Below the pieces are notes generated by a model that was given only the letters and a program-made list of their open reading frames with translations, was not told where the DNA came from and ran no database searches. From a virus (lineage: Duplodnaviria > Heunggongvirae > Uroviricota > Caudoviricetes), in the IMG/VR virus record IMGVR_UViG_2917886563_000007: a stretch of 64,000 nucleotides of DNA; one strand, written 5' to 3'. Shown here piece after piece: positions 13,847 through 19,512 of the stretch (its first letter is position 1; every line of letters begins with the position of its first letter). Both the position numbers and the translations under genes were made by a program.

Positions 13847-14628
13847 GCTGCCACCTTCTGCTCAGTGGCTTTCTGTTTCAGGAATCCAAGAGCTTTCGCT
13901 GCTTCGGCCTGTGTCAGTTCTGACGATGCACGAATGTCGCGGCGAAATATCTGGGAACAGAGCGGCAATAAGTCGTCATCCCATGTTTTATCCAGGGCGA
14001 TCAGCAGAGTGTTAATCTCCTGCATGGTTTCATCGTTAACCGGAGTGATGTCGCGTTCCGGCTGACGTTCTGCAGTGTATGCGGTATTTTCGACAATGCG
14101 CTCGGCTTCATCCTTGTCATAGATACCCGCAAATCCGAAGGCGAGACGGGCACACTGAATCATGGCTTTATGCCGTAACATCCGTTTGGGATGCGACTGC
14201 CACGGCCCCGTGATTTCTCTGCCTTCGCGGGTTTTGAATGGTTCGCGGCGGCATTCATCCATCCACTCGGTAACGCAGATCGGATGATTGCGGTCCTTGC
14301 GGTAAATCCGGCATGTACAGGATTCATTGTCCTGCTCAAAGTCCATGCCATCAAACTGCTGGTTTTCATTGATGATGCGGGACCAGCCATCAACGCCCAC
14401 CACCGGAACGATGCCGTTCTGCTTATCAGGGAAGGCGTAAATTTCTTTCGTCCACGGATTAAGGCCGTACTGGTTGGCGACGATCAGCAATGCGATGAAC
14501 TGCGCATCGCTGGCATCGCCTTTAAATGCTGTCTGGCGAAGAGTGGTGATCAGTTCCTGTGGGTCGACAGAATCCATGCCGACACGTTCAGCCAGCTTCC
14601 CTGCCAGCGTTGCGAGTGCTGTACTCAT
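13843..14628 (-). CDS. bet: Lambda Bet (Red beta) single-strand annealing protein
   Basis: 261-aa protein [37 protein letters not shown]... as lambda Bet. Confidence 0.95.
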
Positions 14629-14633
14629 CCGTT

Positions 14634-14930
14634 TTATACCTCTGAATCAATATCAACCTGGTGGTGAGCAATGGTTTCAACCATGTACCGGATGTGTTCT
14701 GCCATGCGCTCCTGAAACTCAACATCGTCATCAAACGCACGGGTAATGGCTTTTTTGCTGGCCCCGTGGCGTTGCAAATGATCGATGCATAGCGATTCAA
14801 ACAGGTGCTGTGGAAGACCTTTTTCCATGTCGTCTGCCAGTTCTGCCTCTTTCTCTTCACGGGCGATCTGCTGGTAGTGACGCGCCCAGCTCTGAGCCTC
14901 AAGACGATCCTGAATGTAACAAGCGTTCAT
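14634..14930 (-). CDS. gam: Lambda Gam (RecBCD inhibitor), short form
   Basis: 98-aa protein [56 protein letters not shown]... as lambda Gam. Confidence 0.9.
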
Positions 14931-15005
14931 GGCTGAACTCCTGAAAATGGCTGTGAAAATATCGCCAGCGAAATGCCAGGCTGATTAGAAAAACAGGAAA
15001 GGGGA

Positions 15006-15212
15006 TTAGTGATTCAGGCCGTTGCCGCGTCCGTCAAGAAAAACTTCCACGAGCAAGTCACGGGTATAAGTGCGCTCGATGCCGCGATGCAGATAAAGCC
15101 GTCCGCGTAAATTAGCTGATGCTGTCCAGGTACCATCTTTGTGTTTGACCAGCATTCCTGGCATGACCGCACCGCGATTAACGGTCTGCGCTCCGTAATG
15201 TTGATGAACCAT
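15006..15212 (-). CDS. Hypothetical small protein in the kil/cIII position
   Basis: 68-aa ORF downstream of gam; overlaps an alternative-frame ORF; identity not established. Confidence 0.3.
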   Translation of the reverse strand: MVHQHYGAQTVNRGAVMPGMLVKHKDGTWTASANLRGRLYLHRGIERTYTRDLLVEVFLDGRGNGLNH

Positions 15213-15769
15213 AAAAACCCCTGCCCGTAAGCTGGGCTGCTGAACATATAGAGACTTCTGCGCGTATTCAGGCGGTGGATGGCCGCCGGTGTCATAACTA
15301 AGCCGCCTCGTTGAAGCGACTGAGGTATGAAGTATCGAGTTGATTTCAGCTGGTCACACCGACGTTCACGCGTCCGTTTCACCCCTCGCACTCCCCGTAG
15401 CCTGCTGAAATTCAAGCTGCGGATCTAAGCGGTCATCGCAACGGTGAAGCGGTAAATCAGGAGATTGCCGCATTCCTGTGCCGTTGTGATGGATTTATAA
15501 TACCTATTGCTATTGATTATATCAATACGTATAAGTATCGAGCGATAGCGTTTGTTGTTATGCTGTTGATACTGAAAAGAATTTAATGTTGAGGTTTTTT
15601 GTGACATTCGACTCAAAATGGATTTTGCAATTAAATAACCAATTGATAACAATGAAAACATTACGGAGAACTAGATAGGCCAAATTACTTGCCACGAAGA
15701 TAGTTGTAAGCGTTGATAACAATGGTATTGAGGAGGGATACCCCCGACAATTGCGTCAGGGGGGAGGGA

Positions 15770-16156
15770 TTATTGGGCTTTAATGTAATTTTTCAACTTT
15801 GCAGTTTGCTCTACAGCGCTAGGAATGCATCCAAACATATTTGCGCATGAAGTTTGAACAACAATTTCGTTCTTATCGTTTCCTAAAGGTGTTTTTACAA
15901 CCTGATATCCAAGCACGGCACTATTTCCAATAGGAGTGTATGTGGAAATTACCGTTTCATCTGCCATCTGAATTTTCCAACCAGAATTCATTGCTATCCA
16001 AGCTTTGGCTCTCGACCAATATGTATCGCATTGCTCTTTACCTTGACAGTAAACTGGTTGTTGAGCTTGTGCGGCAATTTGGGGATCTATTTTCTGAGCA
16101 CATCCAGAGATGCTAATCAGAATAGCTGCTGTAACGAATAGTTTTCTCATTGACAT
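15770..16156 (-). CDS. Predicted lipoprotein in the rex position downstream of cI; candidate lysogen-expressed exclusion/moron protein
   Basis: N-terminus MSMRKLFVTAAILISISGCAQK has a signal peptide and lipobox ISGC; gene starts ~45 bp downstream of the cI stop on the same strand (start 16156 or 16150). Confidence 0.65.
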   Translation of the reverse strand: MSMRKLFVTAAILISISGCAQKIDPQIAAQAQQPVYCQGKEQCDTYWSRAKAWIAMNSGWKIQMADETVISTYTPIGNSAVLGYQVVKTPLGNDKNEIVVQTSCANMFGCIPSAVEQTAKLKNYIKAQ

Positions 16157-16198
16157 TTCCTTTGTTTTGAATATACAACAAATAAATTGGCAAAAAAA

Positions 16199-16891
16199 TT
16201 ATCCGTGTTTTCTATATGTCTGCGGCATGCTTCCAATGACTTTACCGAAGATGAACACTCGGTTCATCTCGTCTTTCTCGATCGGGTCCCACGGTGAGTA
16301 GCTCTTGTTATCAGAGATAACCAGCAGCTTATCCTTCATCATTTGCAGGCGCTTTACATGGGCTGTGTCGTCGTACAGAAACGCATAGATACCATCACCG
16401 TCGAAAGATTTAACTGTGATATCAACGAACAGCAGATCACCTGGTTCGATCGTTCCTGACATGCTGTCACCGCGCACGTTAATGATGCGGATATTTTCCG
16501 CCTTCCTGCCATCGAACATGTGACGAGCATCGTCAAACGAGTACTCAACCGAGCGTAGAACTTCTACAAACTCACGATTGATGACACCCGGCCCGGCACT
16601 GACTTCTATATCAAGAACGTCAATCTTGAAGTATTTGGAATGGTTGACAGCAGGCTTTTCTGATTGTTGACCGTCATTTCTCATCGGGCCTATGCCTGAC
16701 GAGAGCCACTCTGTTCGAACACCCAATGCATTAGCTATTTCAACAATTTTTGTTGAGCCGCGCGCGTTGCCGCTTGTCAGTCTCCAGATTGTGGGTTGAG
16801 CTACGCCAGACGCCTTTGCAAGAGCGCCTTGAGACATTCCAGATTGTTCCATCGCTAGGTTTAAGCGATCAGCAAGAGTTTCTTTTTTCAT
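16199..16891 (-). CDS. cI: CI-type prophage repressor (HTH_XRE + S24 LexA-like peptidase domain)
   Basis: Start MKKETLADRLNLAMEQSGMSQGALAKASGVAQPTIWRL at 16891; C-terminal S24 domain (RGDSMSGTIEPGDLLFVD ... VKRL); divergent from cro. Confidence 0.85.
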   Translation of the reverse strand: MKKETLADRLNLAMEQSGMSQGALAKASGVAQPTIWRLTSGNARGSTKIVEIANALGVRTEWLSSGIGPMRNDGQQSEKPAVNHSKYFKIDVLDIEVSAGPGVINREFVEVLRSVEYSFDDARHMFDGRKAENIRIINVRGDSMSGTIEPGDLLFVDITVKSFDGDGIYAFLYDDTAHVKRLQMMKDKLLVISDNKSYSPWDPIEKDEMNRVFIFGKVIGSMPQTYRKHG

Positions 16892-17000
16892 AAGTTTTAA
16901 TTTATACGCTTGCGTATTGATGGTCAAAAACGTTTTGCTATTGCTTGAGTTAATACGCATTGCTATTATCTATTTATTGCAATACCAATAGGAATTGATA
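16892..17000. promoter_or_regulatory. cI/cro divergent promoter-operator region (candidate OR)
   Basis: Palindrome ATACGCTTGCGTAT (16904-16917), repeated half-site ATACGC (16953-16958), palindrome TATTGCAATA (16976-16985) between the divergent repressor genes. Confidence 0.5.
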
Positions 17001-17228
17001 ATGACAAATCAAACCATTCAACTCGCAATCAGTATTACAGGTAGTCAAAAACGACTGGCAGATCTCTGCGGTGTAGCCCAACCCACGGTTTGGCGTTGGC
17101 TACACGGTGGCGGAATTGATGCCCGCTATGTAATGAAAATTGTCTCAGCCACTGGTGGAAAGATTAAACCAGCAGATATTCGTCCCGACCTCGCACCATT
17201 GTTTAACGCGAGTAATTCTGCCGCCTAA
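17001..17228 (+). CDS. cro: Cro-like repressor (HTH)
   Basis: Start MTNQTIQLAISITGSQKRLADLCGVAQPTVWRWLHGG at 17001 after an agga RBS; divergent from cI. Confidence 0.7.
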   Translation: MTNQTIQLAISITGSQKRLADLCGVAQPTVWRWLHGGGIDARYVMKIVSATGGKIKPADIRPDLAPLFNASNSAA

Positions 17229-17258
17229 TCTGCGGCGTTAACTGATAAGGCAATTACT

Positions 17259-17798
17259 ATGCAACCACTTACATACCAACAGACTAGCGGATTTAGCCCG
17301 ACTGCGGTGATAAATCGTTCTCAAACAAAACAGGCGCCAGGCCACGAAAAAATCCGTGATGCCGTTCGCGCCTGGTCGGCTGCAGATAATCAGGATGTTG
17401 TTGCCGCACTCATTGTGAATGAGTATCGGGAGCTGGGCGGCGGCACCATCGATTTCCCTGATGATGTCAGCCGTGCACGCCAGAAGTTGTTCCGCTTCCT
17501 CGATAACAAATTCGATTCTGAAAAATACCGAAATAACGTGCGTGAACTGACCCCGGCAATTCTGGCGGTACTACCGCTGGAATATCGCGGCCACCTGGTT
17601 GAGCAGGATAGCTTTATGGCTCGGCTGGCTGAAATGGAAAAGGAACTCAGTGAGGCAAAGCAGGCGGTCATTCTCAACGCACCACGCCACCAGAAACTGA
17701 AGGAAATGAGTGAAGGTATTGTGTCGATGTTTCGTGTGGACCCAGATCTGGCTGGTCCACTGATGGCGATGGTCACCACCATGCTGGGGGCAATATGA
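17259..17798 (+). CDS. CII-position regulatory protein (YdaT-like?)
   Basis: 179-aa ORF immediately after cro; family assignment tentative. Confidence 0.35.
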   Translation: MQPLTYQQTSGFSPTAVINRSQTKQAPGHEKIRDAVRAWSAADNQDVVAALIVNEYRELGGGTIDFPDDVSRARQKLFRFLDNKFDSEKYRNNVRELTPAILAVLPLEYRGHLVEQDSFMARLAEMEKELSEAKQAVILNAPRHQKLKEMSEGIVSMFRVDPDLAGPLMAMVTTMLGAI

Positions 17799-17884
17799 CA
17801 GGTTCAGAAATGGCGAAAGCCGGTCTGCTGGAACAGAACCGACTTTCAGGTGCAAATCGTAACGCACTCATTGCGGGAGGAATT

Positions 17885-18814
17885 ATGGCAAACACTGCTG
17901 AGATATTCAATTTTCCAGTGCCGGATGTGGCACAAAAGGAGCCGCGCGTGGCAGATCTCGATGATGGTTATACGCGCATTGCTAATGAGTTGCTGGAAGC
18001 TGTGATGCTGGCCGGATTAACACAGCACCAGCTTCTGGTCTTCCTGGCTGTCATGCGCAAAACATATGGCTTTAATAAAAAAATGGATTGGGTGAGCAAC
18101 GAGCAACTTTCCGAGTTAACCGGGATATTGCCGCACAAGTGTTCTGCTGCAAAAAGTGTTCTGGTAAAGCGTGGGATTTTTATTCAGAGCGGGCGGAATA
18201 CCGGCATTAATAATGTGGTCAGTGAATGGTCAACATTACCCGAATCAGGTAAGAAAAATAAAGTTTACCTGAAAGAGGTAAATTTACCTGAATCAGGTAA
18301 AAAAAGTTTACCCAAATCAGGTAAAGACGTTTACCTGAATCAGGTAAACACAAAAGACAAACTAACAAAAGACAATATAAAACCTTATTCGTCCGAGAAT
18401 TCTGGCGAATCCTCTGACCAGCCAGAAAACGACCTTCCTGTGGTGAAACCGGATGCTGCGATTCAGAGCGGCAGCAAGTGGGGGACAGCAGAAGACCTGA
18501 CCGCCGCAGAGTGGATGTTTGACATGGTGAAGACCATCGCGCCATCAGCCAGAAAACCGAATTTTGCAGGGTGGGCTAACGATATCCGCCTGATGCGTGA
18601 ACGTGACGGACGTAACCACCGCGACATGTGCGTGCTGTTCCGCTGGGCATGCCAGGACAACTTCTGGTCCGGTAACGTGCTAAGTCCGGCCAAACTCCGC
18701 GACAAGTGGACCCAACTCGAAATCAACCGTAACAAGCAACAGGCTGGCGTGACAGCCGGAAAACCAAAACTCGACCTGACGAACACTGACTGGATTTACG
18801 GGGTGGAGCTATGA
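17885..18814 (+). CDS. O: Replication initiator, lambda O-like
   Basis: Start MANTAEIFNF...VADLDDGYTRIANELLEA...RKTYGFNKKMD resembles lambda O N-terminus; ori iterons lie inside the gene. Confidence 0.85.
   Translation: MANTAEIFNFPVPDVAQKEPRVADLDDGYTRIANELLEAVMLAGLTQHQLLVFLAVMRKTYGFNKKMDWVSNEQLSELTGILPHKCSAAKSVLVKRGIFIQSGRNTGINNVVSEWSTLPESGKKNKVYLKEVNLPESGKKSLPKSGKDVYLNQVNTKDKLTKDNIKPYSSENSGESSDQPENDLPVVKPDAAIQSGSKWGTAEDLTAAEWMFDMVKTIAPSARKPNFAGWANDIRLMRERDGRNHRDMCVLFRWACQDNFWSGNVLSPAKLRDKWTQLEINRNKQQAGVTAGKPKLDLTNTDWIYGVEL
18237..18347. repeat. Replication origin iterons (five copies of TACC(C/T)GAATCAGGTAA-like repeat) inside O, followed by an A-rich segment
   Basis: Repeats at 18237, 18266, 18284, 18309, 18331; A/T-rich tract 18348-18385; same layout as lambda ori inside O. 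Confidence 0.8.
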
Positions 18815-19512
18815 AAAACATCGCCGCACAGATGGTTAATTTTGACCGTGAGCAGATGCGCCGGATCGCCAATAACATGCCGGAACAGTACGACGAAAAG
18901 CCGCAGGTACAGCAGGTAGCGCAGATTATCAATGGTGTGTTCAGCCAGTTACTGGCAACTTTCCCGGCGAGCCTGGCTAACCGTGACCAGAACGAACTGA
19001 ACGAAATCCGCCGCCAGTGGGTTCTGGCTTTCCGGGAAAATGGGATCACCACGATGGAACAGGTTAACGCTGGAATGCGCGTAGCCCGTCGGCAGAATCG
19101 ACCATTCCTGCCATCACCCGGGCAGTTTGTCGCCTGGTGCCGGGAAGAAGCATCCGTTAACGCCGGGCTGCCAAACGTCAGCGAGCTGGTTGATATGGTT
19201 TATGAGTATTGCCGGAAGCGTGGCCTGTATCCAGATGCAGAGTCTTATCCGTGGAAATCAAACGCGCACTACTGGCTGGTTACCAACCTGTACCAGAACA
19301 TGCGGGCCAATGCGCTTACTGATGCGGAATTACGGCGCAAGGCTGCCGATGAACTGGCCTGTATGACCGCGCGAATTAACCGTGGAGAGGCGATACCTGA
19401 ACCAGTAAAACAACTTCCTGTCATGGATGGCAGGCCGCTTAATCGTGTTCAGGCGCTGGCGAAGATCGCCGAAATCAAAGCGAAATTTGGGCTGAAAGGG
19501 GCGAGTGTATGA
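18811..19512 (+). CDS. P: Replication protein P (DnaB helicase loader), lambda P
   Basis: 233-aa protein MKNIAAQMVNFDREQMRRIANNMPEQYDEKPQVQQVAQIINGVF... as lambda P. Confidence 0.95.
   Translation: MKNIAAQMVNFDREQMRRIANNMPEQYDEKPQVQQVAQIINGVFSQLLATFPASLANRDQNELNEIRRQWVLAFRENGITTMEQVNAGMRVARRQNRPFLPSPGQFVAWCREEASVNAGLPNVSELVDMVYEYCRKRGLYPDAESYPWKSNAHYWLVTNLYQNMRANALTDAELRRKAADELACMTARINRGEAIPEPVKQLPVMDGRPLNRVQALAKIAEIKAKFGLKGASV

Follow-up and report, generated by a model that had tools for sequence, protein, structure and literature searches.

A lipoprotein gene of the uncharacterised PHROG 16082 family in the rex position of a Caudoviricetes genome

The DNA analysed was a 64,000-nucleotide stretch (the window) of a Caudoviricetes virus, a lambda-like prophage, IMG/VR record IMGVR_UViG_2917886563_000007. 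The gene under study lies on the minus strand directly behind the cI repressor gene and encodes a small lipoprotein. An earlier reading of the DNA (the original prediction) had placed it where phage lambda carries rexAB and had it transcribed together with cI. The features of the locus are listed below in window coordinates (nt, nucleotides; ORF, open reading frame).

15770..16150, minus strand: lipoprotein gene, 126 amino acids from the second ATG, stop codon at 15772-15770 (ORF list and sequence).
16156, minus strand: alternative lipoprotein start at the first ATG, 128 amino acids (ORF 15770..16156).
16100..16150, minus strand: signal peptide MRKLFVTAAILISISG with Cys17, the predicted site of lipid modification, read directly; Cys17 is invariant in 86 relatives.
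16158..16162, minus strand: Shine-Dalgarno sequence AAGGA, read directly, 7 nt before the second ATG.
16151..16198, minus strand: gap between cI and the lipoprotein gene, with no promoter-like or terminator-like site and no structure.
15741..15762, minus strand: GC-rich 8-bp hairpin found by folding, 8 nt past the stop codon and without a U-tract; a possible 3' end or weak terminator.
15592..16199, minus strand: cargo cassette, from blastn break-points (16200 and 15591) and composition.
16199..16891, minus strand: cI repressor gene, 230 amino acids, helix-turn-helix (HTH) and Peptidase_S24 domains (Pfam; PGAP start in Escherichia coli EC01).
16899..16927, minus strand: pRM-like promoter TTGACC-17-TAAATT (consensus scan, pattern match only).
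16904..16999: right operator cluster, with sites 16904-16921 and 16982-16999 and a degenerate site 16955-16972 (repeat families, exact motif matches).
15500..15538: left operator cluster, with sites 15500-15517 and 15521-15538 (repeat families, exact motif matches).
15497..15525, minus strand: pL-like promoter TTGATA-17-TATTAT (consensus scan, pattern match only).

The Shine-Dalgarno sequence (16162-16158) stands just 1 nt from the first ATG (16156), and an AAGGA of similar kind also precedes the homologues of the gene. The identical gene of E. coli EC01 was annotated by PGAP as a 381-nt coding sequence (WP_001228516.1), and the closest homologues are 125-126 amino acids long. Because of the Shine-Dalgarno spacing, the PGAP start and these lengths, the product is most likely the 126-residue protein MRKLFVTAAILISISGC...; the 128-residue ORF first described is present, with the true start most likely at its second ATG. 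The cI stop codon (16201-16199) is separated from the lipoprotein start, on the same strand, by 42 nt if the first ATG is used and by 48 nt if the second is, a small correction to the spacing of about 45 bp given before. The signal peptide consists of a basic n-region (MRK), the hydrophobic stretch LFVTAAILIS and the lipobox ISGC, which is encoded at 16111-16100 (minus strand; read directly) and fits the pattern [LVI][ASTVI][GAS]C. An alignment of 86 sequences was used to assess conservation; its members are 29-41% identical to the query, except for the two closest (83% and 57%). Besides the invariant Cys17, the Gly before it is near-invariant, and the mature part has four further Cys residues (35, 41, 102 and 108 in the 126-residue numbering), all of them invariant. 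The residue at +2 after the lipobox Cys is Ala. The lipobox and the several mature Cys residues of the original prediction are borne out by this reading, and the gene is almost certainly a real lipoprotein gene.

Sequence comparison places the protein outside every characterised family and within a large uncharacterised one, PHROG 16082. Its residues 3-128 matched positions 1-129 of the 130 positions of that profile (E 1.1e-67), and relatives at other loci likewise matched it (function unknown). A profile search of 1.8 billion cluster representatives returned 1082 relatives at E<=1e-3 and 403 at E<=1e-10. The gene is under strong purifying selection, with a ratio of non-synonymous to synonymous differences per site (pN/pS) of 0.05-0.13. 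Against the 83%-identical homologues, pS was 0.69-0.86 (near saturation) and pN 0.09 (0.05 when only the mature part is counted). Between two of the homologues there were 22 synonymous and 0 non-synonymous changes. Pfam gave no family at E<=1 except a spurious, unrelated TM_HPP match (E 0.031), NCBIfam gave no match, and a PDB sequence search with the family profile matched just the PDZ part of fused relatives. Only two distant matches were found by tblastn in 50,697 phage records, and a first profile search of genome contigs with a distant alignment gave none. The name 'YceK', carried by one database copy, was supported by none of the family searches. A literature search with accessions, the PHROG identifier and related terms found no paper on the lipoprotein. 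The protein had been described as having no homologue that could be named; it belongs instead to a large and uncharacterised family, with members in phages, on small plasmids and in the chromosomes of Burkholderiaceae. Lipoproteins are an ordinary kind of mobile-element cargo in phages, and this one is built from an unstudied family.

The structure was predicted with AlphaFold2 from the 86-sequence alignment (mean predicted local distance difference test score, pLDDT, 94.6; predicted template modelling score, pTM, 0.83). The model has a tether helix followed by a strand-helix-four-strand-helix domain, and the predicted domain is a generic alpha+beta fold of the helix-grip/TBP-like kind. It resembles the N-domain of BamC and Francisella Flpp3 (DUF3568), at a sequence identity of 11-13%. 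Since KA1 domains and many unrelated proteins match the model equally well, the resemblance to the BamC N-domain and Flpp3 is at fold level only, and the four-Cys pattern is specific to the lipoprotein family as compared with these two.

The 18-bp operator-like motif ATACN8ATTGAT has four exact matches in the window, which fall in two clusters. The right cluster adjoins the cI and cro starts. The pRM-like promoter there would start transcription at about the cI ATG (16891) and give a leaderless mRNA, as in lambda. The pL-like promoter overlaps the left operators and points toward kil-gam-bet-exo. The cI DNA is 96-97% identical to the cI of phages 4A7, Lambda_4C10, PhiR68_2 and others. With same-cI phages, homology stops exactly at the cI stop (16200) and resumes at 15591 (4A7) or 15532 (PhiR68_2), which delimits the cassette as 15592-16199. 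The cassette is composed of the gene, its 42-48-nt leader and a 178-nt 3' non-coding part, and has a GC content of 0.35-0.41, as against about 0.52 in the flanks. With the other-immunity phages PhiR34_1 and Turner, homology ends at 15498, just short of the left operators. Given the two operator clusters and this break, the gene occupies the interval from cI to oL/pL, the place of rexAB in lambda, and the rex position claimed for it holds.

The contents of this cI-to-oL slot vary. In 4A7, which has the same cI, it contains the PADLOC candidate defence pair PDC-M11 A+B (E 3e-133 and 7e-52); in PhiR68_2 it contains other genes, and in PhiR34_1 and Turner it is empty. The cargo of the first two is located as follows.

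L107 2003-3419: slot cargo of phage 4A7, PDC-M11 A+B.
L001 1450-2905: slot cargo of phage PhiR68_2, two ORFs of 341 and 149 amino acids without Pfam or PADLOC match.

The slot is thus a clean natural case of exchangeable cargo, occupied by the lipoprotein, by PDC-M11, by two genes of unknown function or by nothing. The lipoprotein gene has two marks of a moron, namely a composition unlike that of the flanks and absence from otherwise near-identical phages. The variable contents agree with the published description of the repressor-to-N (cI-to-N) region as a mosaic moron site (PMC7067206).

Co-transcription with cI was assessed from the anatomy of the locus and of its homologues. A promoter and terminator scan of the 42-48-nt gap between the two genes found no site, and the gap RNA showed no structure (fold z 0.05). 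The window copy has no match to a promoter of its own; the hairpin behind it, which lacks a U-tract, was not called by the terminator scan. An 83%-identical homologue lies directly behind a 79%-identical cI in Hafnia (L118). Further 83%-identical homologues lie behind two cI genes (L011; L012/L004) that have no BLAST similarity to the window cI or to each other. The cI-to-lipoprotein gaps in L118, L011 and the L012/L004 set are 45, 73 and 95 nt. These loci share a ribosome-binding region ahead of the lipoprotein gene. They have a canonical terminator (GC hairpin and T-run) about 37 nt past the lipoprotein stop, and beyond it comes a pL-like promoter, followed in L011 and L004 by an N-type gene. 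The layout is that of lambda, pRM-cI-X-tImm. The relatives behind cI have this terminator and no promoter match, and a relative in a tail module has both. DNA homology between the window and the other copies behind cI is limited to the mature-coding part, so the gene has been placed at the same relative position in different immunity regions. In Salmonella phage BTP1, RNA-seq shows that cI and bstA form an operon read from the cI promoter across an 88-bp gap (PMC7067206), and a survey of lambdoid phages assumes that genes immediately left of cI are on the cI transcript (PMC12315714). On this anatomy and precedent, the lipoprotein is probably co-expressed with cI in lysogens. The co-transcription that had been proposed is supported by the signal-free gap, the recurring cI-lipoprotein order, the terminator of the relatives and the bstA precedent, that is, by anatomy only. 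The broader view of a lysogen-expressed lipoprotein moron in the rex slot stands on good indirect evidence.

The exact lipoprotein is indexed in 1339 blocks of the assembly collection and occurs in 12 of 5426 complete E. coli genomes. E. coli TW11681 and 504239 have the identical cI-lipoprotein pair. The lipoprotein has the same 230-residue cI for a neighbour at each of the eight places inspected (truncated in one), and the prophages with this pair differ in integrase, attachment site and nin cargo. In EC01 (L110, NZ_CM169500.1 3153436-3176000) the pair belongs to a defective prophage remnant at the lambda attachment site. This remnant has a truncated integrase gene and a truncated gam and has lost the head genes and most tail genes by deletion; cI, the lipoprotein gene, a gene with a SNIPE-associated domain and a lipocalin gene are intact. 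Some pair-carrying prophages (L121, L123, L124, L127 and L128, at 222-1854) have a pair of genes for NADAR and PRTase-CE in the nin region, and in others a SNIPE/T5orf172 gene takes that place, so that these backbones also hold defence-like cargo.

More distant relatives (40-58% identity) occupy other classic cargo slots. These comprise the position behind mnt-arc-ant in an immI-like region, sites within tail modules, where the relatives have a promoter-like site and terminator of their own, a site adjoining a Bro-N gene with tail and tailspike genes downstream, a nin-like region and the immunity region of another prophage. In two tail modules (L014 4374-4784 and L016 4374-4721) the family member is followed by a second lipoprotein gene, unrelated to it, whose start it overlaps, giving a two-lipoprotein cargo block; the second genes match phrog_890 ('lipoprotein') and phrog_914 (unknown). 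ColE1-type plasmids of 2.5-8.6 kb from Citrobacter, Salmonella and Enterobacter carry as their main cargo a copy with 72% identity, WP_032201349.1. Four plasmids were inspected (L111-L114; NZ_CP091549.1, NZ_CP073046.1, NZ_CP056713.1 and NZ_CP141253.1). A convergent 69-residue ORF stands beside the lipoprotein gene in three of them and is not listed in NZ_CP056713.1, whose gene table is incomplete; one plasmid has the pair of genes twice. Small convergent ORFs are also found downstream in L011, L012/L004 and L005. A conserved partner gene was considered and rejected, as these ORFs, including those of the plasmids, are mutually unrelated and absent from the window; the lipoprotein would thus work without a dedicated partner.

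Chromosomal homologues of 146-199 amino acids occupy a syntenic position beside gshA in Burkholderia, Paraburkholderia and Caballeronia. In the Burkholderiaceae loci L018-L023 the gene (169-188 amino acids) always adjoins gshA (glutamate-cysteine ligase) and stands upstream of a major facilitator superfamily transporter gene and a MarR regulator gene, a conserved core-genome position. A PDZ domain of the DegP/DegQ kind is present at the C-terminus of roughly a tenth of the relatives (P0059, P0058, P0074 and P0129; L116/L117), and one such fused gene sits in a phage-like region near terminase. The family domain is duplicated in tandem in P0012.

The arrangement was compared with known systems. 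With the lambda exclusion genes rexA-rexB (pRM-cI-rexA-rexB-tImm) it shares the slot from the cI stop to oL/pL, the cI strand and the lack of an intervening signal. The terminator that precedes pL in the close relatives and the mosaic nature of the cargo site are further points of likeness. The products differ: RexAB is a cytoplasmic DNA-binding sensor plus a polytopic membrane protein, whereas a single exported lipoprotein is predicted here. The lipoprotein had no Rex-related match in Pfam or PHROG, and one gene stands where Rex has two components. BstA is a large cytoplasmic abortive-infection protein and has no homology to the lipoprotein. The best architectural precedent is nevertheless cI-bstA of BTP1, where likewise one accessory gene lies directly behind cI (PMC7067206). 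Bor of lambda, Iss of ColV plasmids and TraT are also outer-membrane lipoproteins borne by phages and plasmids and expressed in the carrier; the lipoprotein had no match to Lambda_Bor or TraT in Pfam. Cor and Llp are small phage lipoproteins that act alone at the outer membrane. Together with the Lpp exclusion lipoproteins of mEp phages (PMC11893012), Cor (phi80/N15/HK022) and Llp (T5) resemble the lipoprotein here in being small, phage-borne and provided with a lipobox. It differs from Cor, Llp and Lpp in its larger size, its predicted fold and the lack of linkage to a receptor-binding protein. The match to Cor in PHROG (phrog_1119) had an E of 0.06 and covered residues 3-31 only, i.e. the signal peptide; with the Pfam result, this upholds the earlier statement that the protein is neither Bor nor Cor.

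From these data the following mode of action is proposed. The lipoprotein would be exported through Sec and lipidated at Cys17. Given the Ala at +2, the E. coli Lol avoidance rule predicts that Lol would deliver it to the outer membrane, into the inner leaflet. The mature protein, of about 110 residues, would consist of a tether of about 15 residues and one compact helix-grip domain, probably with two disulfides. As the second gene of a repressor maintenance operon, pRM-cI-lipoprotein, it would be expressed constitutively in the lysogen, like lambda rexAB and BTP1 bstA. By analogy with known lipoproteins, it may act alone on a conserved envelope component and protect the carrier cell; action alone and to the benefit of the carrier is suggested by its occurrence as a single gene on phages and plasmids and its retention in a prophage remnant. 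The likeliest effect would be that superinfecting phages are kept from adsorbing or from getting their genomes in, at the level of the outer membrane or the periplasm. A lysogen-made, outer-membrane, host-protective lipoprotein is the best explanation overall, and it is put forward tentatively.

Phage exclusion, as the function proper, has by analogy somewhat less than an even chance; the original prediction had named it, beside host modification, as typical of genes in this position. Genes of the sieA, cor and gp15 types sit in slots where relatives of the lipoprotein occur, and Cor, Llp, Ltp and the Lpp proteins of mEp phages are precedents for exclusion. Exclusion is favoured because the other occupied slots are those of such genes and because the slot of a sister phage holds defence cargo (PDC-M11). 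It is also favoured because coliphage lipoproteins exclude phages when expressed singly (PMC11893012).

Several results weigh against it. Comparison with Pfam, with PHROG and at the level of fold linked the protein to none of the characterised exclusion lipoproteins, either by sequence or by fold, and no family among the PADLOC-DB 2.0 defence models matched at E<=0.01. The window copy is without the canonical terminator of its relatives. The ancestral role appears from the sequences to be cellular and not specifically anti-phage, because plasmids and Burkholderiaceae chromosomes carry homologues. Among IMG/VR contigs, at least 600 have the C-terminus of the prophage J protein and nine have the lipoprotein, with one contig in common. 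Relatives of the lipoprotein are also found in tailspike phages and phages of other tail types. A Cor-like block of the phage's own receptor was also considered and is judged unlikely, as the lipoprotein does not co-occur with a tail-tip type: the J C-terminus is common, the lipoprotein rare and its relatives are in other tail types.

If the protein excludes phages or protects the envelope, it adds a structurally new single-gene family to the few outer-membrane exclusion factors, Cor, Llp, Bor/Iss and TraT. With more than 1000 clusters at 50% identity the family is large, and it is constrained and present on phages, plasmids and chromosomes, so that one experiment would annotate many genes. 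A lipoprotein without phenotype would merely be another uncharacterised moron. A more specific proposal, speculative and on balance unlikely, sees in the family a single-gene envelope defence that had gone unrecognised. It would be a helix-grip lipoprotein anchored in the outer membrane and derived from a conserved envelope protein of proteobacteria, represented by the Burkholderiaceae gene next to gshA and the PDZ-fused forms. Were it true, the protein would block a conserved step of macromolecule entry across the periplasm and would have been spread by phages with varied tails and by ColE1 plasmids. Protection would then reach unrelated phages, and possibly colicins, in place of the masking of one receptor.

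The most probable rival is that the lipoprotein, made in the lysogen, contributes to host fitness or virulence in the manner of Bor, Iss and TraT, altering outer-membrane properties such as serum or complement resistance, envelope robustness or colonisation, not phage sensitivity. Bor on phages and Iss and TraT on plasmids follow the same genetic logic as the lipoprotein here, a single outer-membrane lipoprotein gene on phages and small plasmids of enterics from human and animal sources, and a defective prophage has kept the gene intact. Homology to Bor/Iss, however, was absent from the Pfam scan. The presence of homologues in Burkholderiaceae from soil and in phages from the environment speaks against a role specific to the host animal, and the other cargo of the same slot is defence-like; this explanation is considered unlikely. 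Lower still in probability is an orphan periplasmic immunity or inhibitor protein, directed against a colicin or other bacteriocin, a lysozyme, or a type VI effector with amidase, muramidase or lipase activity. Such a role would suit a periplasmic lipoprotein that is small, has a single domain with disulfides and acts alone. ColE1-type replicons classically carry bacteriocin and immunity genes, and the lipoprotein gene is the main cargo of tiny plasmids of this type.

A role in the phage cycle (induction, lysis timing or release), with expression mainly from pRE or during lytic growth, is very improbable. According to work cited in PMC12315714, RexAB of lambda also affects the transition from lysogenic to lytic growth, and the lack of a clean terminator before oL/pL in the window copy would fit such a role. 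Plasmid and chromosomal copies, however, have no phage cycle to serve, and the promoter-like site and terminator of the tail-module copies are typical of morons expressed in the lysogen. A chance ORF or decayed pseudogene in an AT-rich spacer, to which the low regional GC (0.35-0.41) and the lack of matches to curated families might have pointed, is refuted by the strong purifying selection, the more than 1000 cluster representatives, the five invariant Cys residues, the confident fold (pLDDT 94.6) and the correctly spaced ribosome-binding site, and its probability is negligible.

Some further features of the region were recorded. Between the pL-like promoter and kil (15006-15212), no N-like gene was found in window positions 15213-15497. 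The 283-nt pL leader folds no better than shuffled sequences (z -1.27), and Rfam gave no credible RNA over 14000-19000. Early-left antitermination with no N-like gene is a puzzle common to the window phage, 4A7 and PhiR68_2. The 3' non-coding part of the cassette contains an exact 12-nt direct repeat, TTGATAACAATG, at 15643-15654 and 15713-15724, 70 bp apart. On the other side of cI, the Cro protein (16995-17228) is a YdaS-family HTH protein, and the cII position (17259-17798) is occupied by a gene for a 179-residue YdaT-domain protein (Pfam 7e-30), not a lambda-type CII.
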